From Planctomycetota bacterium (GTDB lineage Bacteria; Planctomycetota; UBA1135; GCA-002686595), in NCBI GenBank assembly GCA_047629095.1, contig JBLHWM010000001.1:1-46155 (forward strand): DNA of 46,155 bases, written 5' to 3'. Shown here piece after piece: positions 3,865 through 38,720 of the stretch (the stretch's first letter is position 1; every line of letters begins with the position of its first letter). The position numbers were made by a program, and so were the translations under genes. The notes under the pieces are model-generated. The model had not been told where the DNA came from, ran no database searches, and saw only the letters and a program-made list of their open reading frames with translations.

Positions 3865-4950
3865 ATGATCACGAACCTCAGCCTGATTGCCCTCGCCACT
3901 TTCGCCGCTACCGCTGCGCCCCTACCCCAGGACCCGGCCCCTACCCAGGTCGAGGCCGAGGACGAGGGCTGGCAGGTCTTCGACGGCGTTGCGCTGATCG
4001 TGAACGACGAGATCGTGACCCTGCGCCAGCTCAACACCTCTGTGAACGACGCCCGCGGCAACGCCGAGGCCACGACCCAGGAGGACGCCTTCGCCCTTAG
4101 AGACGGCGTCATCAGCGACTCGATCATGATGCACCTCCAGACCCAAGCCGGCCGCTCGCTCGGGGTCGCTGGGTCGGATGTGGAGCGCACGATCAACGGC
4201 TTCCTAGACAACAAGCGCCGCAGCATGTCCGCCACCGACACGACCGACTGGTTCCTGGAGGAGGGCGTTCAGGACCTCGGTCAGATGCGCGAGTCCATCC
4301 GCGAGGAGCTGTACCGTAGCCTCTGGATGCAGAACATCAGCGGCCAGACCAGCGGCGCCGATCGCCCCAGCGAGGATCGCTATGTGCGGCCGGGCCAGCT
4401 GCGGGAGGCCTATTACGTGAACAAGAGCGGCTACGAGACTCCCACCCGCTACATCTTGCAGTACTTGCGCCTGGTGGCCAACGCCTGGGGAGACGCCGAG
4501 ACGGCCCTCGAAGTGGCCACGGACCTGCGCGAGCAGATCGCCGGCGGCGCCGATATGGGCGCCTTCGTCGATGAGTACGGCGCCTTTCTACGCGAGAGGC
4601 GCGGGATCACGGAGCAGGTCGCCCTCGACCAGGTCGCCGAACCCGGCGTGCGCGGATTCCTGGGGGACGCCCGGCGCGGTGCCCTCTCCATGGTCATGCC
4701 GTATTTCGAAGGGGACGTGATCGCCGGTTACGACATCGTGAGGGTGGTTGAGATGCTCGAGGGCCAGGAAGCGCCGGCTTTCAACTCGCCAGGTATCCAG
4801 ATCGCCCTGCAGCGTGGCTTGCAGAGCCGCTGGGACAACATTCGGATCGCGAACGGCGCCGACGAGCTCTGGCGCGCCGCCTACATCCGTTTGCCCAACG
4901 GCATCCGCATCGACCCGCCCTGGGCCCAGCGAGCAGCCGCACGGCGATAG
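3865..4950 (+). CDS. Secreted SurA-N-like / degenerate parvulin-like periplasmic chaperone (tentative)
   Basis: N-terminal signal-like segment MITNLSLIALATFAATAAP. The segment GVALIVNDEIVTLRQLN resembles the start of the SurA N-terminal domain, and the later segment LREQIAGGADMGAFVDEYG resembles a PPIase-domain helix. The position right after mfd is common for SurA-like genes. The function call is soft. Confidence 0.55.
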   Translation: MITNLSLIALATFAATAAPLPQDPAPTQVEAEDEGWQVFDGVALIVNDEIVTLRQLNTSVNDARGNAEATTQEDAFALRDGVISDSIMMHLQTQAGRSLGVAGSDVERTINGFLDNKRRSMSATDTTDWFLEEGVQDLGQMRESIREELYRSLWMQNISGQTSGADRPSEDRYVRPGQLREAYYVNKSGYETPTRYILQYLRLVANAWGDAETALEVATDLREQIAGGADMGAFVDEYGAFLRERRGITEQVALDQVAEPGVRGFLGDARRGALSMVMPYFEGDVIAGYDIVRVVEMLEGQEAPAFNSPGIQIALQRGLQSRWDNIRIANGADELWRAAYIRLPNGIRIDPPWAQRAAARR

Positions 4951-5151
4951 GCGGCAATCGCTTAGCCGGGCGTAGTCTTTCCTGATTCCCTCGATATACT
5001 TTGAACCCCACATTTCGGGCCCCGTTTGGGGTCTGCCGTCGCTACCTCCTTTAATGGAGGTCGGCTGAGCGGCCCCACTGGATATCGAATACATAGGCCC
5101 CTGAAGGCCACCCCCGAGCGCCACCCGGCGCTCAAAAGCCCAACACTAGGC

Positions 5152-6726
5152 ATGAGCAACGCGGACTACAAAAACGTCGAACAGATCGAGAGCACTCTCC
5201 CCCGCCCCTGGGAAGAGGAGACCACCTTCAACGACGTACTCTACGATTGGATGGGACGCGCCCCTTGGCTTGCCATCTCCGGTGCAGCCCACCTGCTAGC
5301 GTTCTTCGTACTTGCAGCCATTCCATGGGACGCCTTCAACAAGCAGGAACCACCCGCGATCACCGCTTCTGTGGAAGCCCCCGCCGACGAGCCCATCGAG
5401 GAGCCCGAAGAGGAGGAAATCCCAGAAGAGGAAGAGGAGATCGAGCCCATCGAGGAGCCGATCCTCAAGGACGCCGAGGTCTCGGACCACAACGAAGAGG
5501 ATGTGGACCAGCCCTTCGAGTCCATGGTCGGTGACCCCGACATGAACTCGGACTCACCCTTCGACTCCGACAACTCCAACGACGTCATGGGCATCGGCGG
5601 CGGCGCCGGTGGCAAGTTCGGTGGACGCCTCGGTGGCCGTAAGAACCTGCGCGCAGCCCACGGTAAGGGTCTCGACCAGGCTCTAAAGGACGCCCTTGAG
5701 TGGCTGAAGAACCACCAGGGCCCCGACGGCTCCTGGGACACGGACGAGTTCAACACCGAGTGCGGCAAGATCGGCAACACGGTCTGCGGCGACCCCGGTT
5801 ACCCCCAGCACGACGTCGGCTCTACGGGCCTGGCCCTACTGGCCTTCCTTGGCGAGGGCAACACCACCGACTCCGGTGACTACAAGGTCCAAGTGGCCAT
5901 GGGCATCAAGTGGCTGCGCAGCGTGCAGGACCCCGACTCGGGCCTGCTCGGCGACAAGTCCAGCCACGAATTCCTGTACAACCACGCCATCGGCACCCTC
6001 GCCCTGTGCGAAGCCTACTACGCGACCAAGAGTCCCCTGCTGAAGCGGACCTGCCAGAACGCGATCAACTACATCAACCGTGCTCGTAACCCCTACAGCG
6101 CTTGGCGCTACGACGAGCCGCCCATGGGCGCGAACGACACCTCCGTCACGGGCTGGATGATCTTCGCGATCAAGGCCGCCGAAGACGCCAAGCTGCAGAT
6201 CGACCCGGGTGCCTACGTCGGCGCTCGCGAGTGGCTCAAGGAAGTCACCGACGAGGCCAACGGCCGCGTGGGTTACAGCGAGTACGGCAACCTGTCCTCT
6301 CGTATCGTCGGGGTCAACGATCACTTCCCCGCCGAGAAGGGCGAGTCCATGACTGCTGTGGGCCTTCTGGTCCGCATGTTCATGGGCGAGACCGATCCCA
6401 AGGAGAGCCCGATCCTCAAGAAGCACGGCGACCTGATGCTGCGCACCCTTCCCGAGTGGGATCCGGACGGCTTCGGCAGTGACATGTACTACTGGTACTA
6501 CGGCTCCTACGCCATGTACCAGCTCGGTGGAACGCACTGGAAGAAGTGGGAGACTGCTCTTAAGAAGACCATCCTCGAAAACCAGCGCAAGGACGGCGAC
6601 GAGAAGGGTTCTTGGGACCCGATCGGACCCTGGGGCTACGCCGGCGGCCGGATTTACTCCACCGCGCTGATGGCGCTCTGCATCGAAGTCTACTTCCGCT
6701 ACGGCAAAGTTGCCGGCGCGCGCTAG
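5152..6726 (+). CDS. Membrane-anchored prenyltransferase/squalene-cyclase-repeat (alpha/alpha-toroid) protein, paralogue 1, with a TonB-like N-terminal anchor
   Basis: ATG at 5152 (MSNADYKNVEQIESTLPRPWEEE) chosen over the upstream ORF extension because paralogue 3 begins the same way. One TM helix (GRAPWLAISGAAHLLAFFVLAAIPW), a Glu/Pro-rich spacer, a Gly-rich tract GGGAGGKFGGRLGG, then QW-type repeats (HQGPDGSWD, NQRKDGDEKGSWDP) and DTSVTGWMIFAIKAAEDA, YYWYYGSYAMYQLGG. Confidence 0.85.
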   Translation: MSNADYKNVEQIESTLPRPWEEETTFNDVLYDWMGRAPWLAISGAAHLLAFFVLAAIPWDAFNKQEPPAITASVEAPADEPIEEPEEEEIPEEEEEIEPIEEPILKDAEVSDHNEEDVDQPFESMVGDPDMNSDSPFDSDNSNDVMGIGGGAGGKFGGRLGGRKNLRAAHGKGLDQALKDALEWLKNHQGPDGSWDTDEFNTECGKIGNTVCGDPGYPQHDVGSTGLALLAFLGEGNTTDSGDYKVQVAMGIKWLRSVQDPDSGLLGDKSSHEFLYNHAIGTLALCEAYYATKSPLLKRTCQNAINYINRARNPYSAWRYDEPPMGANDTSVTGWMIFAIKAAEDAKLQIDPGAYVGAREWLKEVTDEANGRVGYSEYGNLSSRIVGVNDHFPAEKGESMTAVGLLVRMFMGETDPKESPILKKHGDLMLRTLPEWDPDGFGSDMYYWYYGSYAMYQLGGTHWKKWETALKKTILENQRKDGDEKGSWDPIGPWGYAGGRIYSTALMALCIEVYFRYGKVAGAR

Positions 6727-6750
6727 ACGGTCGACAAGACACCAATCGAG

Positions 6751-6790
6751 AAGCCCCCGGGTCCGCAATGCGGGCCCGGGGGTTTCTTCG
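6751..6790 (+). terminator. Rho-independent terminator after paralogue 1
   Basis: The 13-bp GC-rich stem CCCCCGGGTCCGC / GCGGGCCCGGGGG (one G-U pair) has an AAT loop and is followed by TTTCTT. Confidence 0.8.
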
Positions 6791-6826
6791 TGGGCGGCAA
6801 GTCGATCGGGCGCTAGGATTCATGGC

Positions 6827-8041
6827 ATGAAGAACACGCTTTGGATTGGAAGTGCTCTCGCCCTCTCGCTCTCCTGGGTAACCGGCTGCCGCAGCGCCAA
6901 TCCTGTGCCCATCGAGAACGACACCCAACGCATAGTGGAAGAGCCCGCCGAGTCCAGCGCGCCCCTGGAACCTGGGCCGATCAAGGATGCACTGGACTGG
7001 CTCAGCGCTCACCAAAACGAAGACGGGCATTGGGATGCGGATCGCTTTGGCGACGAGTGCGCAAAGGCCAGCAAGACGACCTGCGCAAACCCGGGCTCGG
7101 TCCAGCACGATGTGGCCGCAACGGGACTCTCGCTTTTGGCTTTCCTGAGCGCTGGCCAGTCCGAATATTCTGGCGACTACCGAGACCAGGTTAGCGCTGC
7201 TCTGAGGTGGCTGCGCCATCAACAAGATCCACAGACCGGCCTCATTGGGGAGCGAGTCAGCCACGACTTCCTCTACGGCCACGCGATTGCAACCTACGCA
7301 TTGTGCGAAGCCAACAACGTTGTCCGGGGGAACCCGCTGATCAAGCGCGCCAGCAACCTTGGGATTAGATACATCGCCAACGCGCGCAATCCCTACGGTG
7401 CTTGGCGCTATGACGTGCCGCCAATCGGAGACAACGACACGTCGGTCACCGGCTGGATGATGCTTGCCCTCAAGTCGGCCGAGCGCGGACGGCTGCCCGT
7501 GGACCAAGACGCCTTCAAGGGAGCCCTCTCCTGGATCGACGAGGTCACGGACGAGCAAACCGGTCGGGTCGGCTACAACGAAGTCGGCAGTACCTCCGCG
7601 CGTATCGTCGGGCTCAACGAGCACTTCCCCCCGGAGTCCGGAGAGGCCATGACCGCCATCGGCCTTTCGATCCGTATGTCCCTTGGGCAGATGGAGCCAG
7701 AGCAGTACCCATTGATAGCGAAGGGCGGCGAACTGATCCTGCGCAGCCTACCCACGTGGGAGCAGCAAGAGTTCACCAGCGACATGTACTACTGGTACCA
7801 CGCGACCCGCGCCATGAACGAACTAGGTGGCACCTACGCCGAAAAGTGGAACGCCGCCATGTTGCAAGCCACCACCCAAGGCCAACAAACCTCCGGCCAC
7901 GCGAAGGGATCCTGGGATCCGGTTGGGGCCTGGGGTTCATCCGGCGGACGCGTCTACTCCACCGCGCTCATGACCATGTGTCTTTCATTCCAGCTCGAGG
8001 ATCCGCTCGCCGAAGCTCTCAGCGGTTTGGGTTACCTGTAA
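6827..8041 (+). CDS. Lipoprotein with a prenyltransferase/squalene-cyclase-repeat (alpha/alpha-toroid) domain, paralogue 2
   Basis: MKNTLWIGSALALSLSWVTGC is a signal peptide with a lipobox (V-T-G-C). The rest is collinear with paralogues 1 and 3 (HQNEDGHWD, DTSVTGWMMLALKSAE, YYWYHATRAMNELGG, GSWDPVGAWG, VYSTALM). Confidence 0.85.
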   Translation: MKNTLWIGSALALSLSWVTGCRSANPVPIENDTQRIVEEPAESSAPLEPGPIKDALDWLSAHQNEDGHWDADRFGDECAKASKTTCANPGSVQHDVAATGLSLLAFLSAGQSEYSGDYRDQVSAALRWLRHQQDPQTGLIGERVSHDFLYGHAIATYALCEANNVVRGNPLIKRASNLGIRYIANARNPYGAWRYDVPPIGDNDTSVTGWMMLALKSAERGRLPVDQDAFKGALSWIDEVTDEQTGRVGYNEVGSTSARIVGLNEHFPPESGEAMTAIGLSIRMSLGQMEPEQYPLIAKGGELILRSLPTWEQQEFTSDMYYWYHATRAMNELGGTYAEKWNAAMLQATTQGQQTSGHAKGSWDPVGAWGSSGGRVYSTALMTMCLSFQLEDPLAEALSGLGYL

Positions 8042-8081
8042 GGTCAAGCGCGGCGCGCAGGTGATTCCCTTTTGGGACTTG

Positions 8082-8122
8082 ATTCCCGTTTAGAGGTCTT
8101 CCAGGGGCATCTAAACGGGAAT
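8082..8122 (+). terminator. Perfect 13-bp inverted repeat (hairpin): possible terminator of paralogue 2 or an operator
   Basis: ATTCCCGTTTAGA (8082-8094) and TCTAAACGGGAAT (8110-8122) are exact reverse complements with a 15-nt loop. The downstream sequence TCCCCGTTTGTTGTC is only moderately U-rich. ATTCCC recurs nearby, and GGGAATTCCCC is almost palindromic. Confidence 0.4.
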
Positions 8123-8279
8123 TCCCCGTTTGTTGTCAGGGCGATGTGAACCGAACTCTTGCCTGTCCGTTGTCTCTCTTGTCGCGGCCGCAAGGTTCGC
8201 GGCCGCAGGACACTCTTGGGGTGACTGGTCTCTGATTCCGAGCAGAGGTCCGCACTTGGGGAGACGGCCTTGGTTCCCA

Positions 8280-9845
8280 ATGACAACTTCAGACTACTCC
8301 ACAGTTCAGATTGAATCGACCCTTCCCAAGCCTTGGGAGGAAGAGCACTCCTTCAGTGAAGTGCTGTACGACTGGATGGGCCGCGCACCGTGGTTCGCCG
8401 TTTCAGGTGCCGCGCACTTGCTCGCTTTCTTCGTGCTGACGGCGATTCCCTGGGGCGCTTTCCATAGGGAAGAGGTGCCTGAAATCATCGGCACGATAGA
8501 GAAACCAGCACCCGACATCGTCGATGAGATCGAGCCCGAAGAGCTGCCCCTAATTCCCGAAGAAGCGGAGCTGGTGGAAGACCTGGACGACATGCTTTTG
8601 ACCGAGTCTGTGGACGAGATCTCCGACCAGGATGACCTTGCCTTCGATCCGGTCGTAGGCGAAGTCGCCAGTCCCTTCGAGTCCAATTTGGAAGCCATGA
8701 GTAACGAGATTGGCGTTGGCGGGCCAGGCGGCAATGGTGGAGACTTGGGCGGCGGCAAGGGCGGCAACGGTGGGCGCGGCGGAGTGCAGATGGAGCGCTC
8801 CCTGCATGATGCGCTCGAGTGGCTCAAGCATCACCAGAGCCCCGAGGGCTACTGGGATTCGGACGGCTTCTCCGACCACTGTGGTGGGATTGGCGGCTCG
8901 ATTTGTGAGGACCCCGGCTACGCACAGCACGATGTTGGCGTCACGGCGCTAGCGCTCTTGACCTTCATCGCCGCAGACAACACGACCAACCACGGTCCCT
9001 ACCAAGAGCAGGTCAAGCGGGGCATCAAGTGGCTGCGCACGATGCAAGATCCGGACTCGGGCCTCGTCGGCGAGAAGTCCAGCAAGGAGTTCCTGTACAA
9101 CCACGCGATCGCGACTCTCGCTTTGTGCGAAGCCTACTACGACAACGCGTCGCCGCTGCTGCGCATCACCAGCCAAAAGGCCGTCAACTACATCCAGATG
9201 GCGCGCAATCCCTACGGTGCCTGGCGCTATGACCAGCCTCCGATTGGCGCCAGTGACACCTCGGTCACGGGCTGGATGGTCTTCGCTTTGAAGGCCGCCG
9301 AAGACGCGAAACTCGATGTGGATCAAGGCGCCTTCGACGGTGCGATGGCCTGGTTGAACGCTGTCACCGACACGGCCAGCGGCCGCGTTGGCTACAGCGA
9401 ATACGGCAACCGGTCCTCGCGTATCACGGGCATCAACGATCACTACCCCGCGGACAAGGGCGAGGCCATGACGGCCGTCGGCTTGCTGTGCCGGATCTTC
9501 ATGGGCGAGAGCGACCTGCGCGAGTATCCGATCCTCAAAAAGCACGGCGATCTGATGATGCGCAGCTTGCCCGAATGGGACGACGACGGCTTTGGCAACG
9601 ACATGTACTACTGGTACTACGGTACCTACGCCATGTTCCAACTCGGGGGCAAGTACTGGAAGCAGTGGGAAGCTTCCCTGAAGACGACTCTGCTGGAGAA
9701 CCAGCGCAAGGATGGCGATGCCAAGGGATCCTGGGATCCGACCGGGCCCTGGGGATTCTCCGGCGGCCGGGTCTACTCGACGGCGATGATGGCCCTCTGC
9801 ATCGAGGTCTACTTCCGCTATCCCAACATCACAGGAGCAAGGTAA
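8280..9845 (+). CDS. Membrane-anchored prenyltransferase/squalene-cyclase-repeat (alpha/alpha-toroid) protein, paralogue 3, with a TonB-like N-terminal anchor
   Basis: ATG at 8280 (MTTSDYSTVQIESTLPKPWEEE) parallels the start of paralogue 1. TM helix GRAPWFAVSGAAHLLAFFVLTAIPW, acidic/Pro spacer, GGPGGNGGDLGGGKGGNGGRGG, then the same toroid motifs as paralogue 1. By eye about two thirds of the residues in that domain are identical to paralogue 1. Confidence 0.85.
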   Translation: MTTSDYSTVQIESTLPKPWEEEHSFSEVLYDWMGRAPWFAVSGAAHLLAFFVLTAIPWGAFHREEVPEIIGTIEKPAPDIVDEIEPEELPLIPEEAELVEDLDDMLLTESVDEISDQDDLAFDPVVGEVASPFESNLEAMSNEIGVGGPGGNGGDLGGGKGGNGGRGGVQMERSLHDALEWLKHHQSPEGYWDSDGFSDHCGGIGGSICEDPGYAQHDVGVTALALLTFIAADNTTNHGPYQEQVKRGIKWLRTMQDPDSGLVGEKSSKEFLYNHAIATLALCEAYYDNASPLLRITSQKAVNYIQMARNPYGAWRYDQPPIGASDTSVTGWMVFALKAAEDAKLDVDQGAFDGAMAWLNAVTDTASGRVGYSEYGNRSSRITGINDHYPADKGEAMTAVGLLCRIFMGESDLREYPILKKHGDLMMRSLPEWDDDGFGNDMYYWYYGTYAMFQLGGKYWKQWEASLKTTLLENQRKDGDAKGSWDPTGPWGFSGGRVYSTAMMALCIEVYFRYPNITGAR

Positions 9846-9860
9846 GAGGCGCCTCTTACC
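9841..9860. repeat. Perfect 20-bp palindrome overlapping the stop codon of paralogue 3
   Basis: GGTAAGAGGCGCCTCTTACC equals its own reverse complement, and the TAA stop lies at 9843-9845. Confidence 0.9.
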
Positions 9861-9914
9861 CAGCACGAAATCGTAGGGACGACCAGGTCTCGGAAAGGCC
9901 TCCCTACGGCAAGA

Positions 9915-9949
9915 AAGCCCCACCTGCGCAGGTTGCGCGGGCGGGGCTT
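9915..9949. terminator. Bidirectional terminator hairpin between convergent genes
   Basis: AAGCCCCACCTGCGC / GCGCGGGCGGGGCTT stem (one mismatch, one G-U). On the minus strand it is followed by TTTCTTG, and on the plus strand by GTGCTTGTG. Confidence 0.6.
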
Positions 9950-9971
9950 GTGCTTGTGCCTAGGGGTCGCT

Positions 9972-10316
9972 CTAGCAGATGCGGCGGAAGAAGAGCTTCA
10001 TGAACTCCTCCGCCGTTTTTTGGGGGCGAGCCATCAGGCCGCCCTCCACCTGCACCTTGCAGTTCACCGTAGTGGAGGGATGCTCTTCGGAGCCTGCGAC
10101 GATCACAGTGATCGTTGAGGTTCCTCCAAGGGCTCCACCCTTTTTGGTGCAGTGCAAGGTCGTGTTCTCCTCATCGGTCTGATCGAGGACCCAGCCCTTC
10201 ATATCGGCAACCATCTCCTTAGCAGACGAGAAGATGTACTCCTTCCGCGTAGCAACCTGAATCGGCTGCTGGTAGGTGGAGGAGTGGCTAGGACTAGTCT
10301 CGAAACTGGACGCCAT
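9972..10316 (-). CDS. Hypothetical small protein (114 aa), no family recognised
   Basis: A clean ORF with ordinary amino-acid composition, directly downstream of rpsT on the same strand and followed by a terminator. No motif I can name. Confidence 0.55.
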   Translation of the reverse strand: MASSFETSPSHSSTYQQPIQVATRKEYIFSSAKEMVADMKGWVLDQTDEENTTLHCTKKGGALGGTSTITVIVAGSEEHPSTTVNCKVQVEGGLMARPQKTAEEFMKLFFRRIC

Positions 10317-10330
10317 GGGAAGAGAGCGCG

Positions 10331-10582
10331 CTACTTAGCAGCGGCGGCGAGAGCGACGCGGCTCTTATAGCGAGCAGCGGCGTTTTCGTGGATGACGTTC
10401 TTCTTAGAGGCCTTGTCGATGCGCTTCATAGCGACCGGCAGGGCTGACGTCGCGACTTCAGCGTTCTCAGCTTCCATCACGATGCGAATCGCCCTGCGCA
10501 TGGAGCTGCGGACGATCTTGTTTTCTTGACGGCGGGTCTCGGTGAGACGCACGCGCTTGTTGGCTTGCTTATTGTTCGGCAT
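10331..10582 (-). CDS. rpsT: 30S ribosomal protein S20
   Basis: 83 aa, MPNNKQANKRVRLTETRRQENKIVRSSMRRAIR...KNVIHENAAARYKSR. This is the typical S20 sequence pattern. Confidence 0.95.
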   Translation of the reverse strand: MPNNKQANKRVRLTETRRQENKIVRSSMRRAIRIVMEAENAEVATSALPVAMKRIDKASKKNVIHENAAARYKSRVALAAAAK

Positions 10583-13795: not shown

Positions 13796-13871
13796 GGGCA
13801 GGTAGCTCAGTTGGTAGAGCACTTGACTGAAAATCAAGGGGTCGCCGGTTCAAGTCCGGCTCTGCCCACCA
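13796..13871 (+). tRNA. tRNA-Phe (anticodon GAA), CCA encoded
   Basis: Manual cloverleaf: acceptor GGGCAGG/TCTGCCC, D-arm GCTC-AGTTGGTA-GAGC, anticodon arm CTTGA-CTGAAAA-TCAAG, T-arm GCCGG-TTCAAGT-CCGGC, discriminator A, then CCA. Confidence 0.95.
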
Positions 13872-16682: not shown

Positions 16683-18794
16683 ATGCTCTCGCTCCTGCTC
16701 AGCCTCGCCCTCGCCCAGCCCCAGGACATCCCCGTGGAATCCGAGCACACCAACCATCTGATCGGGGAGACGAGCCCCTACCTGCTCGCCCACGCGAACA
16801 ACCCCGTGGACTGGTATCCATGGGGCCCGGAAGCGCTGGAGCTCGCGAAGAAGCTCGACAAGCCAATCTTCCTGTCCATCGGCTACTCCGCATGCCACTG
16901 GTGCCACGTCATGGAGGAGGAGTCCTTCGAGGACGAGCGCATCGCCGCCCTGATGAACGAGAACTTCGTCTGCATCAAGGTCGATCGCGAGGAGCGCCCG
17001 GATCTCGACGAGATCTACATGACCGCGGTCACGGCCCTGACCGGACGAGGCGGATGGCCCATGAGCGTGTTCCTCACGCCGGGCCTGCAGCCGTACTACG
17101 GCGGGACCTACTTCCCTCCGTCAGCGCGAGGTGGGCACAGTGGCTTCGACGATGTGCTCACGACCATGCGCGACCACTGGGACAACAACCGCGAGCAGGT
17201 CTTCGAGCTGGGCAAGGAGATCACGGCACACATGGAGGAGGTCAACCGAGCCGGCGGGAAGGCCTCGCTGGATGTGAGCGTTCTCAATCGCTCGCTGGCC
17301 CACATGAAGACCAGCTTCGATCCCGTCTGGGGCGGCTTCGGGCAGGCGCCGAAGTTCCCGCATACGATGGACCTGCGCCTGGCTCTTCGGCACTGGAGCC
17401 GAACCCAGGACCACACGGTCCTGCAAATGGTCACCACGACCCTGGACCGAATGGCTGAGGGTGGAATCTATGACCAAGTGGGCGGCGGCTTCGCCCGCTA
17501 CAGCACCGACGAGAAGTGGCTCATTCCCCACTTTGAGAAGATGCTTTACGACAACGCTCTGTTGGTCCCCGTCTACCTCGACGCTTATCTGATCACGGGT
17601 GACGAGACCTATGCGCGGGTCGCCCGGGAGACCTGCGAGTGGGTCCTTGAGGAGATGATGACCGACTCAGGCGGCTTCGCCAGCAGCCTCGACGCAGACT
17701 CCGAGGGCGAAGAGGGGCTCTTCTATGTGTGGGACAAGGCCGAGCTTCAAGCTGTACTAGGAGATGAGCGAGGCACGTGGGCGGCCAAGTGGTTCGGAGT
17801 CACACCCACCGGCAACTTCGAGGACGGCAAGAGCGCCCTCTGGCGCCACGAGAGCGCCTCGGACGTCGCGAAGGCCCTCGGCGTTGAACAAGAGCGGCTC
17901 GAGGCCGCCATGGGCGATTCAAGGGACCTCCTGTACAGGGCCCGGGAGACCCGGATTCATCCGGCCCGGGACGACAAGGTACTCGCCTCCTGGAATGGCA
18001 TGATGATCTCAGCCCTCGCCCAGGCCGGCCAAGTCCTGGGGGAGCCACGCTACGTGGATGCCGCGAGTGGGGCGGCCAACTACATCCTCCAAGGGATGCG
18101 CCAGGAGGACGGGCGACTCTTCGCTACGGCCCGCAATGGCAAGGCCCATCTGAATGGGTACCTGGACGACTACGCCTTCGTCATCGCTGGCTTGATCGAC
18201 CTGTACGAGTCCGACTTCAACCCCAAGTGGATCCACCAGGCGCTCGCCCTTAACCAAGTCGTCGAGATCGAATTCGCCGCGCCCGACGGTGGCTTCTACA
18301 GTACCGGTGACAGCCACGAGACCCTGCTCCTCAGGCTGCAGAGCACGACGGATGGAGCGATCCCCGCCGGCCTAGCGATCCAGACCATGAACCTACTTCG
18401 CCTTAGCGAGCTCACGGGAGACCCCAAGCTTGGGGTCCGGGCCAACGAGGCGCTGGAGTCGAGCGGAGTGGCCGCAAAGGAGAGCCCCACCCGGTTTAGC
18501 CAGCAGCTGCTTGTGCTCGACACGCTACTGGCCAAGCCCTTCGAGATCGTAGTCGCCGGTGAGCTCACCAGCCCGAGTACCCAAGCGATGCTCACCGCAA
18601 TCCGAAGCGCTTACCTGCCCCACCGCGTCGTAGCCTTGGTGGACGGGCGAACCGACTTCGAGCTCATGCCGGTCCTGAAAGAGAAGACCAACGACGGTCC
18701 CGCAAGGGCCTTTGTCTGCCAAGACTTCACCTGCCAGGCTCCGACGGAGAGCGTGCCCACGATGCTCGAGCTGCTCGGGCTAAAGCCCAAGTAA
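16683..18794 (+). CDS. Thioredoxin-domain (DUF255) / N-acylglucosamine-epimerase-like protein, YyaL family
   Basis: [56 protein letters not shown] is the hallmark N-terminus of this family. 703 aa with an alpha/alpha-barrel-like remainder. Confidence 0.9.
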
Positions 18795-20008: not shown

Positions 20009-22255
20009 TTAGCGGGCTGGGCGGTGCAGGTCGAAGCGATCGAGTTGCATGACCTTGGTCCAGGCCGTGGCGAAGTCATTGACTAGCTTTTGCTGGCCAT
20101 CGCTGCTTGCGTAGACTTCGGAGATCGCTCGGAGTTGGGAGTTCGAACCGAAGAGTAGGTCAACGGAGGTTGCGGAGTACTTTTCCTGGCCGCTCGCTCG
20201 ATCGAAGCCGGTGTAGTTGCCCTGATCGGACTCTGACTTTTTCCACTCCGTGTTCATATCCAGCAGATTGACGAAGAAGTCGTTACTCAGAACTCCGGGG
20301 CGGCCTGTAAAGACACCGTGACTTGAACCTTCGTAGTTCGCTCCGAGCACCCGCAATCCGCCGACCAAGGCCGTCATTTCGGGGGCACTGAGTGCGAGTT
20401 GGTTGGCGCGGTCCACCAAGGCTCGCTCGGACCGGAAGTAGGATGCCGAAGAGTGGTAGTTCCTGAAGCCATCGGAGAGGGGCTCCAGGACATCGAACGA
20501 GTCGGTGTCGGTCCACTCTTGGGTCGTGTCCGCTCGGCCGAGGGCAAAGCCCACAGTGACTTCATAGCCGGCTTCCTTTGCGGCGACCTCGATCGCAGCA
20601 CTGCCGCCCAGCACGATGACATCGGCGAGGGAGACCTGCTTGCCCTCGGGAAGCTTGGCATTGAACTCGGCGTGCACAGACTCCAAGACGCCCAGTGCGC
20701 TCGCGAGCTTGGTCGGCTCGTTCACAGCCCACGCGTTTTGAGGCGCAAGACGCAAGCGAGCCCCGTTGGCTCCACCGCGCTTGTCGCTATCCCGGTAGCT
20801 GCCGGCCGATGCCCAAGCCGTCGAGACCAACTGCGAAACGGACAGGCCCGAGTTGAGGATCGATGACTTGAGCTCGCTAAGCTCGGCTGCGCTCAACAGC
20901 TCATAGGACACCGCGGGGACGGGATCCTGCCACAGCTGTGCCTCGGGGAGATCCTTGCCAAGCAGTCGGGTCACCGGTCCCATATCGCGGTGCGTGAGCT
21001 TGTACCAGGCACTCGCAAACGCGGCGTTGAACTGATCCGGGTTCTCGAAGAAGCGCCGGGAGATCTCCCCATAAATGGGGTCCATCCGCAGGGCCATATC
21101 GGTGGTCAACATGACCGGGTTGTTGTACTTACCGGCGATGTGGGCATCGGGCACGATGGCGGCGCCTCCGATCGGAGTCCATTGGTGCGCGCCAGCCGGG
21201 CTCTTGGTGAGCTCCCATTCGAAGCTGTACAGGTTGGCCAAGAAACCATTCGACCACTTGGTCGGCGTCGCCGTCCAAGCGCCCTCGAGTCCGCTGGTGA
21301 TCGTATCGGCTCCCTTGCCGGTACCGTGGCTGTTCTTCCATCCTAGGCCCTGGTCTTCCAGACCGGCGCCTTCGGGATCGGGGCCTACATTGCCGTCCGG
21401 CTTGGCGGCGCCGTGGGTCTTGCCCAGGGTGTGGCCACCGGCGATCAATGCGACCGTCTCCTCGTCACCCATGGCCATGCGTGCGAATGCCTCGCGGATG
21501 TCGCGGGCCGCGGCAAGGGGGTCCGGCTTGCCGTTCGGGCCCTCGGGGTTCACGTAAATGAGGCCCATCTGCACGGCGGCCAGTGGCTTCAACAGCTCAC
21601 GATCGCCTGTATGCCGATCATCCCCCAACCACTCGCCCTCTGGCCCCCAGAAGATGTCGTTCTGGGGTTCCCAAACGTCCGCGCGGCCACCGGCGAATCC
21701 AAAGGTCTCAAAACCAGATGACTCCAGAGCAACGTTGCCGGCGAGGACCATCAAGTCGGCCCAAGAGATGCTCTGGCCATACTTCTGCTTGATCGGCCAC
21801 AGCAGTCGACGAGCCTTGTCCAAGTTGGCATTGTCCGGCCAACTGTTCAGGGGCGCAAAGCGCTGAGTTCCATCCGAGGCGCCGCCGCGGCCATCGCCAA
21901 CTCGGTAGGTACCAGCACTGTGCCAGGCCATGCGGATGAAGAGCGGGCCATAGGTTCCCCAGTCCGCGGGCCACCAGTCCTGGGAAGTGGTCAACAGGCT
22001 GGCCAGGTCTTGCTTGAGAACATCGAGGTCGATCTTCCCGAACTCTGCCGGGTAATCGAAGTCACTGCCCAGGGGATTCCCCATAGGCGAGTTGTGATGA
22101 AGGATGCTCAAGTCAAGTTGCTCGGGCCACCAGTCCCTATTCGTTGCCTCTTGGGGCGTATAGGGATTCATGCGTTCCTGGGCAGAGACTCCATAGCTAC
22201 CGGCTACAAGGGCTAGGCCTAGGAGTACTGGAAGTGGGGTAAGGCGTTGGTTCAT
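20009..22255 (-). CDS. katG: Catalase-peroxidase KatG with an N-terminal signal peptide
   Basis: [25 protein letters not shown], and a two-domain length. ATG at 22255 gives [27 protein letters not shown], a Sec-type signal peptide. Confidence 0.95.
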
Positions 22256-22372
22256 GGCGTTTCCATAGGTCGATTGAGACACGGATCTCGGGTGCACCGC
22301 TACGACTGCGTGCAACCGCGAGGCGCCTAGAGTAGACCGCCACCCCGGTGGATGCAAATGATTACCGTTGAG

Positions 22373-22395
22373 GAATACTATGCGTCTGGGTATTC
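22373..22395. promoter_or_regulatory. Candidate operator: inverted repeat GAATAC-N11-GTATTC in the katG/fur-family divergent region
   Basis: GAATAC at 22373-22378 and GTATTC at 22390-22395, preceded by AAATGATTAC, which loosely resembles a Fur-box half site. Confidence 0.25.
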
Positions 22396-22454
22396 TGTGC
22401 GGCTTGACCACAGGGGTGCGCTAGACTAGGGATGCCCTATAGACCACCTAGACG

Positions 22455-22901
22455 ATGAATCCAACACACCATAAATCGAGGCTTGAGAAGCTGACGCGCG
22501 GCTACGCAGAAGCCGGTCTGCCGCTAACTTCACAGCGCCGCACGCTGCTCCATGTGCTCGCGGGCCGTCCGGACCACCCGACAGTCGACCAGATCTATGC
22601 GGAGTTGACCCTCACGCTTCCTGAGGTCTCTCGGACCACCGTCTACCGCTCCTTGGAGGTGCTCACCAAGCTGAACCTCCTCAAGCGCGTCGAGCACCCC
22701 GGTGCATCTGTGCGGTTTGACCCCAACACCGAGCCCCACCACCACTTCCTATGCACTGCCTGTGGAGCCCTATCGGACTTGCCCGCTAGTGCCCTGAGCG
22801 GCACGGGCGAGCTCGATTGCAAAGAGCTGAGCCAGGGACAGGTCGAAGAGGTCTCAGTGCTCGTCCGAGGGCGCTGTCACGGCTGCCAAGACGTCCAGTA
22901 G
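22455..22901 (+). CDS. Fur-family transcriptional regulator (PerR/FurA-like by context)
   Basis: Winged-helix N-terminus (RTLLHVLAGRPDHPTVDQIYAEL), HHHFLCTACG and RGRCHGC metal-site motifs. Divergent from katG. Confidence 0.85.
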   Translation: MNPTHHKSRLEKLTRGYAEAGLPLTSQRRTLLHVLAGRPDHPTVDQIYAELTLTLPEVSRTTVYRSLEVLTKLNLLKRVEHPGASVRFDPNTEPHHHFLCTACGALSDLPASALSGTGELDCKELSQGQVEEVSVLVRGRCHGCQDVQ

Positions 22902-36032: not shown

Positions 36033-38720
36033 TTAGCGTGCGGCGCCAAGCGCCTCCCACTCCTCGGTGGTCATTAGAATGTCACGGCGGGTTCCGCCGA
36101 GATACGGGCCGATGAGGCCCATGGATTGGAGTTCGTCGAGGATGGCCGTGGCTTCTTGGAAGTCCATGTCGAAGTTGCGCTGCAACATCGAGACCGCCAC
36201 CCGGCCTTGATCTAGGAAGAGTGCGCCACTGCGGAAGATCTTCTCCTCCTGGGAGAGTTCAACCACGGGCTCGTTCGGAGCCTGCTCGGGCTCCGATTCA
36301 GACTTGGCCTCGTCGGGCACAGCAACCGCCTCTTGGGAAGGTAGCACATACGACTCCTCTTCCTCGGCAGCCTCAGCTTCAGCCTTGGCAGCAGCTTGCT
36401 CGGCAGCCTTGGCCTCAGCCTTGGCCTCAGCCTTGGCAGCTTTCGCTTCTGCCTTCGCCTCGGCTTTCGCAGCCTTGGCCTCAGCATCCGCCTTCGCTTT
36501 TAGCTCGGCCTTTTCAGCGGCCTTAGCTTCCGCCTCAGCTTCTGCAGCCTTGGCTTCCGCCTCAGCCTCTGCGGCCTTGGCTTCTTCAGCGGCCTTAGCT
36601 TCCGCCTCAGCCTCTGCAGCCTTGGCTTCTTCTGCGGCCTTGGCTTCCGCCTCAGCCTCTGCGGCCTTAGCTTTTTCAGCGGCCTTAGCTTCCGCCTCAG
36701 CCTCTGCAGCCTTGGCTGCTTCTGCGGCCTTAGCTTCCGCCTCAGCCTCTGCGGCCTTAGCTTTTTCAGCGGCCTTAGCTTCCGCCTCAGCCTCTGCAGC
36801 CTTAGCTTCCTCTTCCGCCTTGACCTTGGCGGCCTTAGCTACAGCTTTCGCCTCGGCAGCCTGTGCTTCTTCAGCTGCCTTGGCCGCGGCCAATGCCGCG
36901 GCTTCCCTTGCGGCCTTAGCTTCGGCTTTTGCCTTAGCTTCAGTCGCAGCTTGATCTTCGGCCTTGGCCTGGGCGGCTGCCTCTTCGGCCTCGATGGCTT
37001 CGAGCTCCCGGAGCAATGCCATGTCCTCTTCGGTCTCCGCTTCCTTAGAAGGGTCTTCGGCGACAGTCGAGGCCTCGGAAGCTTGGTCCATCTCTACGAG
37101 AGACTTCTCTTCTACTTCAAACCGGCTAACGGGCTGAGCGGGCTGAGCGGGCTCATCGGAGTCGAACAGGCCCGGCTGCTCCCATGCGGGCCTGGGAGTC
37201 GAGTTCTCCACTTCGTCAAGATCCCCAAGGATCTCATCGTCGTCCTCGAGGCTTGATTCGATGCCCTCTTCGATTTCCGCGGATGGGGACTCCACTTCGG
37301 CTAGCTCGTCTTCGTCGAGCTCGGCGACTAGGTCGTCCTCGAGCTCGGCTGCTTCTTCCTCTTCGTACTCTTCCTCGTCCGCTTCGTCTTCGTCAAGCTC
37401 TGCGACTAGATCGTCCTCAAGCTCGGCTTCCTCTTCCTCTTCCTCTTCCTCTTCGTACTCTTCTTCGTCCTCGTCGAGTTCGGCGACTAGGTCGTCCTCA
37501 AGCTCGGCTTCCTCTTCCTCTTCCTCTTCGTACTCTTCTTCGTCTTCGTCGAGTTCGGCGACTAGGTCGCCCTCGAGCTCGGCTGCTTCTTCCCCTTCCT
37601 CTTCTTCCTCTTCGTATTCTTCTTCGTCTGCTTCGTCTTCGTCGAGTTCGGCGACTAGGTCGTCCTCAAGCTCGGCTGCCTCTTCGTCCTCGTACTCTTC
37701 TTCGTCCGCTTCGTCTTCGTCGAGTTCGGCGACTAGGTCGTCCTCAAGCACAGCGGCATCTTCGGGCTCCTCGGCTGCGGTCTCCCAGCTAGGGGCGCTG
37801 GGGATGGACGCCTCGAGCACAGTCACGCTTGCGTCACCCGAATCGAGGGGCCTTACTTCGTCTTCGTCGGTGCGAGTCCAGACTCCGTCGGCGAGCTTAC
37901 CCGTGACGGCACGGGCTTTCGGGGTGCCAGCGGAATCCGCGGGCTTGGTGTCAGCCAGATTTGAGCCAAGCGGCTTGGGCTGGGTTGCGCCTTCGGTAGA
38001 CCCTTTTTGGTCTGCCGTAGATGAACGGTCACTTTTGGATTCGGCTGGGGCATGATTCTCTTGGGTGGGCGCGCCGAGGGGGCGAACCCCATCGGGTAGT
38101 TCGCCTCGTGCGCGCTGCTCGTGAACGGTGACTCCCGGCGCAGCGGCGATCGGAGCGGGCAGTTCGGGGAAGAGTGCCTCGGCTTCCGCCTCGGACACTC
38201 CATCAGTCTCTACCTCACTCAATGCGGCAGCAACGGAACTCGACTCCACCACTTTTGACCTTTTTTGAGGCATGGGAGCTCCAATCGAGAGCCATGCCCC
38301 AAGAAATACGACTCCAAATGCCAGCAAAGCGTTCATGATGCCGCCGCCGATGCCGCCAAGGGCACCGGGGAGGAAGCCGCCGAGTGCGCCACCGGCCGCA
38401 ACGCTAAACACGCCGACCAAGAGGCTCAGGGCGAGTCCACCGCCGGCAATCATCGCTAGGGGCATGGAGAGCTTCAAGGCACCCGGGCGCAGGAACATGA
38501 TCCCGCCCAGCACAGTGCAGCCCGCCGACAGACCGAAGGCCGCGATGTGCCCAAGTCCAAGGATCAATGCACCGATCGCCGCCGTGGAAAGGTTGCCGGC
38601 ATCACCGGAGTCCGAGTACATGGACATGCCCGCGGACACCGCGCAGAATGCGCCGCCCAGGAAAAAAGCCATGGACAGGAGTTCGTAGCCAATGTGCTTA
38701 CTGTTCTTCGAATTACTCAT
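36033..38720 (-). CDS. FtsK-like membrane protein lacking the motor: polytopic N-terminus, long repeat-rich linker, FtsK-gamma-like C-terminal winged helix
   Basis: ATG at 38720 overlaps the ftsK stop (ATGAGTAA). The N-terminal roughly 150 aa form 4-5 Gly/Ala-rich TM helices. The C-terminal segment RVAVSMLQRNFDMDFQEATAILDELQSMGLIGPYLGGTRRDIL aligns with the gamma domain of the neighbouring FtsK. I found no Walker A or B motif anywhere in the protein. Confidence 0.8.
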   Translation of the reverse strand: MSNSKNSKHIGYELLSMAFFLGGAFCAVSAGMSMYSDSGDAGNLSTAAIGALILGLGHIAAFGLSAGCTVLGGIMFLRPGALKLSMPLAMIAGGGLALSLLVGVFSVAAGGALGGFLPGALGGIGGGIMNALLAFGVVFLGAWLSIGAPMPQKRSKVVESSSVAAALSEVETDGVSEAEAEALFPELPAPIAAAPGVTVHEQRARGELPDGVRPLGAPTQENHAPAESKSDRSSTADQKGSTEGATQPKPLGSNLADTKPADSAGTPKARAVTGKLADGVWTRTDEDEVRPLDSGDASVTVLEASIPSAPSWETAAEEPEDAAVLEDDLVAELDEDEADEEEYEDEEAAELEDDLVAELDEDEADEEEYEEEEEEGEEAAELEGDLVAELDEDEEEYEEEEEEEAELEDDLVAELDEDEEEYEEEEEEEEEAELEDDLVAELDEDEADEEEYEEEEAAELEDDLVAELDEDELAEVESPSAEIEEGIESSLEDDDEILGDLDEVENSTPRPAWEQPGLFDSDEPAQPAQPVSRFEVEEKSLVEMDQASEASTVAEDPSKEAETEEDMALLRELEAIEAEEAAAQAKAEDQAATEAKAKAEAKAAREAAALAAAKAAEEAQAAEAKAVAKAAKVKAEEEAKAAEAEAEAKAAEKAKAAEAEAEAKAAEAAKAAEAEAEAKAAEKAKAAEAEAEAKAAEEAKAAEAEAEAKAAEEAKAAEAEAEAKAAEAEAEAKAAEKAELKAKADAEAKAAKAEAKAEAKAAKAEAKAEAKAAEQAAAKAEAEAAEEEESYVLPSQEAVAVPDEAKSESEPEQAPNEPVVELSQEEKIFRSGALFLDQGRVAVSMLQRNFDMDFQEATAILDELQSMGLIGPYLGGTRRDILMTTEEWEALGAAR
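36515..36815 (-). repeat. In-frame tandem repeat, about 45-nt (15-codon) unit encoding AEAEAEAKAAE(K/E/A)AKA, about 6-7 copies
   Basis: The unit GGCCTTAGCTTCCGCCTCAGCCTCTGCAGCCTTGGCTTCTTCTGC recurs with small variations. It sits within a larger Ala/Glu/Lys-rich tract at about 36355-37000. Confidence 0.85.
37295..37760 (-). repeat. In-frame tandem repeat, six variable-length units (about 75-93 nt) encoding (E/A)ELEDDLVAELDEDE(ADE)EEYEEEE...
   Basis: The core GCGACTAG(G/A)TCGTCCTC recurs near 37325, 37403, 37484, 37559, 37651 and 37730. Unit length differs through the number of Glu codons. Confidence 0.85.

Follow-up and report, generated by a model that had tools for sequence, protein, structure and literature searches.

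The window analysed here is a stretch of 46 kilobases (kb; 46,155 nucleotides, G+C 60-68% across its length) from contig JBLHWM010000001.1 of a Planctomycetota bacterium. It carries three consecutive plus-strand genes at 5152-9845, labelled P1, P2 and P3, whose products belong to the squalene-cyclase/TED alpha/alpha-toroid superfamily and are not cyclases. The safest description of these proteins is that they are extracytoplasmic toroids without cyclase motifs, two of them tethered to the inner membrane by a TonB/TolA-like anchor and a ruler-length spacer and one of them lipid-anchored. We favor a reading in which the tethered toroid serves as a ligand-binding head and the polar membrane helix of P1 and P3 engages a membrane partner, and we assign this reading as a whole a probability of about 0.5. 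The toroid cluster itself is real, conserved and unstudied, and the membrane anchoring of P1 and P3 and the lipoprotein status of P2 are new relative to the initial annotation, which was made from this DNA alone. The three genes and their parts are as follows.

5152-6726, plus strand: P1, bitopic inner-membrane toroid protein of 524 amino acids (aa), with a start that agrees with the N-termini of its homologues
5263-5328, plus strand: P1 membrane helix, aa 38-59, PWLAISGAAHLLAFFVLAAIPW, containing Ser43-x3-His47-x6-Leu54-x3-Pro58
5335-5670, plus strand: P1 acidic, Pro/Gly-rich disordered linker, aa 62-173
5353-5382, plus strand: P1 D-box-like strand motif, aa 68-77, PPAITASVEA and then Pro, 23 residues past His47
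5671-6723, plus strand: P1 (alpha/alpha)6 toroid, aa 174-524, with the conserved G-A-R at its C-terminal end
6827-8041, plus strand: P2, lipoprotein toroid of 404 aa, with a signal peptide at aa 1-20 and the toroid from about aa 47
6887-6889, plus strand: Cys21 of the P2 lipobox VTGC, found by pattern search
8280-9845, plus strand: P3, bitopic inner-membrane toroid protein of 521 aa, the faster-evolving paralogue of P1
8388-8453, plus strand: P3 membrane helix, aa 37-58, with Ser42 and His46
8460-8789, plus strand: P3 linker, aa 61-170
8475-8507, plus strand: P3 strand motif VPEIIGTIEKP, aa 66-76
8790-9842, plus strand: P3 toroid, aa 171-521

The initial annotation had described three collinear paralogous genes on the same strand. 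Open reading frames (ORFs), BLASTP and alignment bear this out, and the collinear domain is present in all three, with a length of about 350 aa rather than the 370 aa first given. Identity between P1 and P3 is 62% from end to end and 71% in the C-terminal toroid of ~350 aa (BLASTP and alignment), while P2 is 54% identical to P1 over 335 aa and 51% identical to P3, or ~50-54% across the toroid; at E <= 1e-134, all of these pairings are far beyond chance. The estimate by eye that P1 and P3 share about two thirds of their toroid residues and that P2 is more diverged was thus close (71% versus ~50%). P2 keeps every family-invariant residue. The sequence blocks by which the three proteins had been grouped recur in each of them, as does a Cys-x7-Cys pair, the two cysteines of which are conserved across the family in only 58% and 67% of cases.

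Several lines of evidence agree on the fold of the shared domain. The only Pfam family to score above its cut-off is PF13243 (SQHop_cyclase_C; cut-off 26.1 bits), with 34.2 bits for P3, 27.2 for P2 and 21.3 for P1, which falls just under the cut-off yet is 71% identical to P3 within the domain. TED_complement (PF07678; P2 21.9 bits and P3 14.3 bits against a cut-off of 22) and Prenyltrans (PF00432; matched by P3 alone at 15.8 bits against 26.5) remain below threshold. Family profiles match the squalene-hopene cyclase structure 2SQC at E 2.7e-10 and 3.9e-14, aligned through the QW repeats, and the thioester domain of insect TEP1 at E 7.7e-7. In an AlphaFold2 model of P3 that used 56 homologues, residues 168-513 form a 12-helix toroid with a predicted local distance difference test (pLDDT) score mostly above 90, residues 38-55 a membrane helix and residues 81-164 a disordered region, where the pLDDT of the linker is below 50. 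A Foldseek search of the Protein Data Bank (PDB) with this model returned generic single-domain toroids only, at 10-16% identity and a template modelling (TM) score of 0.55-0.67 relative to the target. The best of these matches were AprG with N-acetylglucosamine (GlcNAc), AGE-family epimerases, small class II cyclases such as MstE, GH76 and a GH8-like amylase. A sequence search of PDB chains with P3 gave nothing but spurious low-complexity matches, and judging from such searches a close characterised relative of P1-P3 does not appear to exist. The hidden Markov model (HMM) searches, structure prediction and fold search proposed in the initial annotation thus all point to the alpha/alpha-toroid with QW-like repeats that it had named.

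Two explanations that follow from this superfamily membership can be set aside with some assurance. Homology to squalene-hopene cyclase, and the database name "terpene cyclase/mutase family protein" carried by relatives, would be the grounds for taking P1-P3 to be true terpene cyclases or prenyltransferases acting on isoprenoid lipids, a reading that is effectively refuted already. In a pattern search the motifs D.DD, DD..D and C[GL]EQ were absent from all three toroids, and D.DD strings occur solely in the acidic linker of P3. The NCBIfam cyclase models TIGR01507 and TIGR01787 score only 18-31 bits against cut-offs of 322-431, the P3 model has a single toroid of ~350 aa instead of the two-toroid cyclase architecture, and the domain is extracytoplasmic. 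None of the sizeable ORFs of the window, every one of which was scanned, is an isoprenoid gene, and no gene for a prenyltransferase alpha subunit is found in the window either; the initial annotation had reported both the lack of DxDD/DDxxD motifs and the lack of isoprenoid neighbours correctly. P1-P3 therefore resemble squalene-hopene cyclase (PF13243; 2SQC) in their homologous QW-repeat alpha/alpha toroid, and differ from it in having one toroid rather than two, in lacking the DxDD general acid, and in being extracytoplasmic, membrane-tethered and without isoprenoid gene context. A proposed equivalence of the block GxNDTS with the cyclase motif DxDDTA was dropped, as the HMM alignment puts this block on another squalene-hopene cyclase repeat. 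That P1-P3 are protease traps or thioester proteins of the alpha-2-macroglobulin type is as improbable as a cyclase function and is largely refuted already. The weak TED_complement match of P2, a fraction of a bit short of the cut-off, and the profile match to the TEP1 thioester domain speak for it; the CGEQ/CLEQ motif is missing, and the proteins consist of anchor, linker and toroid, with no macroglobulin domains and no bait region. With the thioester domains of alpha-2-macroglobulin, TEP1 and complement C3 they share a superfamily and the use of a non-catalytic toroid outside the cell, and differ in the absence of the thioester motif, macroglobulin domains and bait region.

The toroid works outside the cytoplasm, and P2 is lipid-anchored, on the sequence criteria applied here. 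The N-terminus of P2, MKNTLWIGSALALSLSWVTG-C21, is a signal peptide ending in a lipobox, and several orthologous middle or last copies at the locus also have lipoboxes. The extracytoplasmic placement, which the initial annotation had suggested, follows from three observations: other genomes have copies at this locus with signal peptides or lipoboxes, longer two-toroid relatives have signal peptides, and in kinase fusions the toroid follows a Ser/Thr kinase, with one strong hydrophobic helix between the two in four of the seven fusions examined. P1 and P3 are N-in bitopic inner-membrane proteins in which a cytoplasmic peptide and a membrane helix are followed by a disordered linker and the toroid.

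The anchor of P1 and P3 is conserved in unusual detail. The cytoplasmic N-terminus of ~36 aa (5152-5262 in P1, 8280-8387 in P3) is conserved about as strongly as the toroid and has the consensus E-S/T-x-L-P-K-P-W-E-E-E-x-T-F-N-D-V-L-Y-D-W-M-x-R-A, in which F, L, W, P and W are invariant and which runs into the P-W that precedes the helix. An HMM of this N-terminal module matches toroid genes alone within 1.5 Mb of related loci. The pattern P-W-x3-S-x3-H is present in 112 of the 113 matches that have an intact N-terminus and no signal peptide. In 219 sequences chosen on this pattern, which served for the position-wise analysis of conservation, the module reads R-A-P-W-L-A-I-S-A-A-A-H-L-L-x-F-F-I-L-x-A-I-P-W, with a hydrophobic residue at His+7 in 94% (Leu in 60%) and Pro at His+11 in 98%. 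Past the helix, 155 of 234 sequences have I-x-A-x-[ILV] at exactly His+23, and in 145 of these 155 a Pro follows within 6 aa, the corresponding strand motifs being PP-AITASVEA-P in P1 and VP-EIIGTIEK-P in P3. The linker is 100-112 aa long in 121 homologues (standard deviation 2.4) and is strongly acidic (E 18%, G 13%, D 10%, P 10%; median net charge about -24). Other features of these regions include a conserved linker motif, P-E-E-[VI]-F-E-[ED], at His+31 to His+37, and a conserved Gly-rich basic stretch, GGxGGKFGGRxGG, immediately before the toroid, in place of which secreted two-toroid relatives have G-[LI]-Y-A-[KG]-R-F. The membrane-anchored copies end in G-[AGS]-R-COOH in 114 of 121 cases, an ending mostly not found in secreted copies, and no known sorting or recognition signal fits it.

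A comparison of this anchor with the force transducers TonB and TolA shows several similarities. Like these, P1 and P3 cross the membrane once with the N-terminus inside, by a helix with Ser-x3-His-x6-Leu. In E. coli TonB the sequence is R-F-P-W-P-T-L-L-S-V-C-I-H, in a numbering that agrees with that of the D-box peptide given below, and it shares with the toroid family an R-x-P-W ahead of the helix. TonB and TolA dock on ExbBD and TolQR via a Ser-His-Leu-Ser (SHLS) helix, and their D-box or motor box is a short strand captured by the ExbD/TolR dimer (PMC12204202, PMC10907165); the D-box peptide of TonB, residues 43-54, is QPISVTMVTPAD (PMC10907165). A putative counterpart of this strand, alternating, hydrophobic and Pro-flanked, lies at His+23 in the toroid family; in TonB the D-box starts at His+25 and has one additional hydrophobic residue. 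Beyond it, a Pro-rich spacer of ~100 aa, matching domain II in length, leads to a globular head. This head is a 350-aa all-helical toroid and not the TonB_C/TolA_C fold, which binds by strand addition, and P1 and P3 are therefore not members of the TonB/TolA family; at most, they may work like TonB and TolA. Transducers with a non-TonB head have been described as a new class in Planctomycetes and other bacteria, in which an SHLS helix, a motor box and a ~100-residue domain II carry a vWA (von Willebrand factor A) domain, and these were found through synteny with tolQ/tolR-like genes (PMC12204202). P1 and P3 share with the vWA-headed transducers of PVC (Planctomycetes-Verrucomicrobia-Chlamydiae) bacteria the general plan of an SHLS-like helix, a motor-box-like strand, a spacer of ~100 residues and a non-TonB head (PMC12204202), and differ in having a toroid for a head and no motor synteny.

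The likeness of the helices was also assessed by profile. A transducer-helix HMM was built from 11 genuine helices, those of E. coli TonB and TolA, eight of TolA or TonB from other phyla and one of a vWA-headed protein, the non-E. coli helices being taken from the supplement of PMC12204202. It was searched against 12,862 ORFs of at least 60 aa, drawn from the window and from related loci totalling 1.5 Mb. Of the top 40 matches 35, and of all 120 matches 86, were toroid ORFs, so that the helix of the toroid family is the best match to the transducer profile in this ORF space. In hhalign, the N-termini of the family aligned with those of the transducers at a probability of 77% (P 2e-5); the alignment spans 12 columns and keeps Ser-x3-His in register.

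The conservation of the toroid itself bears on what the head may do. Beyond the QW motifs, conservation in 163 divergent domains exceeds 90% at about 20 polar or aromatic residues, among them Y273, H275, R316, Y317, D326, Y372, R381, E395, R405, D441 and R497. Many of these residues lie either at the first turn of alternate helices, as do H275, D326, E395, D441 and R497, or in the long loops leading into those helices. Because the inner helices of an (alpha/alpha)6 toroid are parallel to one another, the conserved residues are expected to form a ring on one face of the central depression, where the N-termini of the inner helices lie, an assignment made from sequence and general fold topology. 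The presence of Trp/Tyr, Arg, Asp/Glu and one His on this face suggests a polar and possibly anionic ligand such as a glycan. In the kinase fusions, H275, D326 and R497 are retained in all seven cases and R316 and D441 in six of seven. The initial annotation had preferred binding to chemistry; the reuse of the toroid as the outer part of Ser/Thr kinases does tip the reading towards binding, whereas the near-invariant polar set would also suit an enzyme. In these fusions the toroid takes the position after the membrane helix that is held by extracellular sensor domains such as PASTA in other Ser/Thr kinases, from which it differs in having an unrelated fold; P1-P3 are also without a kinase.

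The family to which the three toroids belong is large. A search with P3 gave 1,728 matches among 8,000 scored candidates, nearly all of ~520 aa and from Planctomycetota metagenome-assembled genomes (MAGs), and a profile of the three toroids recovered 14,132 clusters at 50% identity with E <=1e-3, of which 5,492 reach E <=1e-30. Family proteins range from 330 to 2,800 aa and include domain-only lipoproteins, two-toroid secreted proteins, Ser/Thr kinases, and toroids behind unrelated helical or MORN-like N-terminal regions; the toroid follows a kinase and a membrane helix in at least 7 of 150 representative relatives. Every relative with an organism name is from Planctomycetota, and the database names are restricted to "hypothetical", "prenyltransferase/squalene oxidase repeat-containing" and "terpene cyclase/mutase family". 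Nothing relevant was found in the literature on this toroid family in Planctomycetes.

In the reading we favor, the toroid would be a ligand-binding head, with a conserved face made up of the ring of N-terminal ends of the six inner helices and the long conserved loops, and with a glycan or another invariant envelope component as its ligand. The linker would be a ruler, keeping the head a set distance out from the inner membrane in the direction of the peptidoglycan or outer membrane, and the invariant polar membrane helix would dock onto another membrane protein. The tandem copies would derive from an old duplication, after which P1 kept the ancestral role. Since the helix, the His+23 strand and the spacer of ~110 residues copy the plan of TonB and TolA, a proton motor of the ExbBD/TolQR type would be the best candidate for the docking partner, and this is our leading guess, if a tentative one. 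That P1 and P3 are force transducers driven by the proton-motive force on an unlinked motor, pulling on a toroid head that has hold of a ligand associated with the peptidoglycan or outer membrane, with P2 as partner or competitor, is a possibility that we would hold with rather more doubt than confidence.

A number of observations weigh against the favored reading. Pfam and NCBIfam searches with the N-terminal 150 aa of P1 and P3 gave nothing at E values up to 10. The matches to the transducer HMM have individual E-values of 0.5-8, which are not significant, and as the toroid ORFs are all homologous, the 35 among the top 40 count as one observation. The fourth SHLS position is Pro (98%) in the toroid family and not Ser, and the conserved 35-aa cytoplasmic motif has no counterpart in TonB or TolA. 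No ExbB, ExbD, TolQ or TolR gene is present in the window or within 10 kb in ~95 loci, six of which are divergent, non-syntenic contexts; phmmer searches with the four E. coli proteins against the ORFs of the window and the 1.5 Mb found nothing, and no motor gene appears in any gene table of the related contexts covered. The vWA-headed transducers surfaced exactly through the motor synteny that toroid loci lack, which weakens the case for a motor. It does not refute coupling, because E. coli tonB is itself unlinked from exbBD. The near-invariant polar residues, as judged from the alignment, would be equally compatible with an enzyme, and the best structural neighbours found by Foldseek, namely AprG, AGE epimerases and GH76, act on sugars. 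Finally, the conserved gene neighborhood described below holds unrelated housekeeping genes (mfd, rpsT, def, ribF) and so says little about function.

Other explanations were weighed as well. P1-P3 could be tethered periplasmic enzymes, for instance a new glycoside hydrolase, lyase, epimerase or transferase with peptidoglycan or another envelope or imported glycan as its substrate, in which case the anchor and linker would merely position a catalytic (alpha/alpha)6 toroid. We consider this unlikely on balance, though it is the alternative to be taken most seriously, as the His, Asp, Glu, Asp and Arg that are nearly invariant in 163 divergent domains, at the start of the inner helices, are what an active site might look like, and the closest structures (AprG with GlcNAc, AGE epimerases, GH76, the GH8-like amylase) are all sugar-acting toroids. 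AprG, the AGE epimerases and the GH76 mannanases do share with P1-P3 a single (alpha/alpha)6 toroid of similar size, but these matches are structurally weak, with the low identity and TM scores given above, and no sequence-profile relationship was detected. No Pfam family of glycoside hydrolases, polysaccharide lyases or epimerases is matched, the nearest sequence relatives are squalene-hopene cyclase and TED rather than glycosidases, and an enzyme would leave the reuse of the domain outside kinases, the polar membrane helix and the fixed linker length unexplained. A transmembrane sensor, in which the toroid binds a ligand of the envelope or the environment and a signal passes via the polar helix to the cytoplasmic peptide, which recruits a cytoplasmic partner, would account for the very strong conservation of the 35-aa cytoplasmic motif and is in keeping with the toroid as the outer domain of Ser/Thr kinases. 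Such a role is nevertheless improbable, as known anti-sigma or output domains would not fit into so short a cytoplasmic part, linked regulator genes are absent, and a disordered linker is poor at passing conformational signals.

The remaining alternative concerns the gene upstream and requires a description of the locus, which contains the following further features.

3865-4950, plus strand: SurA/PpiD-family periplasmic chaperone-like gene, 361 aa, directly upstream of P1
6747-6790, plus strand: terminator-like hairpin with a U-rich tail 3' of P1, identified by folding energy against shuffled sequences
8042-8279, plus strand: P2-P3 spacer of 238 base pairs (bp) with local hairpins (for example 8082-8122)
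9846-9971, no strand assigned: convergent terminator region between P3 and the minus-strand 114-aa gene and rpsT, -65 kcal/mol, z -3.5

The gene at 3865-4950 has a SurA_N match of 32 bits (cut-off 30.8), in agreement with the SurA-like gene that the initial annotation had placed before the toroid genes, and its orthologues match SurA_N_3 and Rotamase_2 at one divergent locus (L090) and Rotamase_2 at another (L089). Among species-representative genomes, 441 stretches encode relatives of the toroid proteins, and the best 80 of the 441 are all from Planctomycetota or unclassified MAGs. Gene order is kept at 46-87% identity, running from rnc, mfd and the SurA-like gene through one to three toroid genes to a downstream block of the 114-aa gene, rpsT and a tetratricopeptide repeat (TPR) gene, all on the minus strand, followed by def and ribF. 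The chaperone-toroid pair and the rpsT-TPR-def block are still found in clusters with less than 50% identity (L090, and L089 without mfd). At least one membrane-anchored copy is present at every locus and a second in about half, while a secreted or lipoprotein copy occurs at 24 of 87 loci, between the anchored copies or after them. P1 is the slow-evolving copy and P3 diverges faster, the orthologues of P1 being 96, 87 and 81% identical and those of P3 in the same three genomes 82, 66 and 55%. Synteny and this asymmetric divergence together indicate that the array is an old duplication and not the random paralogue expansion that the initial annotation had named as the competing possibility.

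The SurA/PpiD-like gene is thus a conserved neighbour of the toroid genes, and a functional link between them is putative. P1-P3 could be accessory partners of this chaperone, perhaps as a YfgM-like cofactor, membrane-anchored and built of helical repeats, that would handle exported proteins at the Sec translocon. The chaperone-like gene lies immediately upstream of a toroid gene in most loci, the pairing survives both without an adjacent mfd (L089) and in a divergent clade (L090), and in E. coli the partner of PpiD is a bitopic protein with helical repeats. Even so, such a partnership is improbable: a gap of 57-250 bp separates the two genes in the measured loci, divergent paralogues have no chaperone neighbour, and an acidic ruler of 110 aa is not expected of a translocon-proximal cofactor. 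The whole housekeeping block is conserved, so the adjacency may simply be inherited, and since unrelated genes are kept in this block, proximity to the chaperone is weak evidence of shared function. Individual loci show further variation, including a PQQ beta-propeller gene after the third toroid gene at L084 (14549-16441) and a flagellin gene between the second toroid gene and rpsT at L089 (15686-16516). The 114-aa gene in the P3-rpsT interval (9972-10316, minus strand) has no Pfam match, and its position is kept in at least 17 related loci.

Of the intergenic structures, the strong terminator-like hairpin that the initial annotation had placed after the first toroid gene is well supported, with a folding energy of -45.7 kcal/mol (z -5.3), none of 200 shuffled sequences as stable, a core at 6753-6782 and the tail UUUCUUC; the terminator scan had missed it. 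The spacer before P3 is exactly 238 bp, as first described, and hairpins are present in it, but in folding energy the spacer does not stand out from shuffled sequence (z -1.1 and -0.8) and is not notably structured in this sense. No Rfam family matched the spacers above threshold. A sub-threshold match to the small RNA CcsR1 at 9955-10021 on the plus strand (18.9 bits against 65.3, E 0.4), at the convergent terminator region after P3, is probably due to chance. A search of 4800-10400 found no sigma-70-type promoter, with a model that is uninformative for planctomycetes.

The other genes of the window are housekeeping in character and include mfd, the SurA-like gene, rpsT, def, ribF, katG, fur and tsaD, as well as carA, priA, ftsK, coaBC, gmk, secG and tpiA. 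Beside ftsK, a minus-strand gene at 36033-38729 encodes an 898-aa membrane protein with a Gly-rich multi-helix N-terminus, long acidic repeats (AELEDDLVAELDEDEADEEEYEEEE...) and then Ala/Lys/Glu repeats (AEAKAAEKAKAAEAEAE...) that resemble TolA domain II, and an FtsK-gamma domain at its C-terminus; a dip in AT skew (-0.40) at 36-38 kb is caused by this gene. A second, unrelated alpha/alpha-barrel protein is encoded 7 kb downstream in the same conserved synteny block (16683-18794, plus strand), where a DUF255 thioredoxin-like domain is fused to a GH88/epimerase-like region. The minus-strand katG gene is divergent from a gene for a Fur-family regulator (22455-22901) within 20009-22901, an arrangement of the PerR/Fur-katG type, and a single tRNA-Phe (GAA) gene lies downstream of ribF at 13796-13871 on the plus strand.

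In conclusion, the toroid domain of P1-P3 represents a very large family that has neither a Pfam family of its own nor a studied member, and the recognition of its members as extracytoplasmic toroids without cyclase motifs corrects the misleading labels of terpene cyclase and prenyltransferase under which they are filed. It also flags a core envelope component in an uncultured and widespread clade of planctomycetes, and the fixed length of the acidic linker makes the ruler hypothesis directly testable. If the anchor couples to a motor, the toroid would be a new type of head for force transduction by 5:2 motors. No pal gene is known in Planctomycetes (PMC12204202 supplement), and if the transducer reading is true, these proteins would perform an envelope function like that of TolA in a phylum from which Pal is reported to be missing, and would offer a candidate answer to the question of how Pal-less planctomycetes link energy at the inner membrane with the outer envelope.

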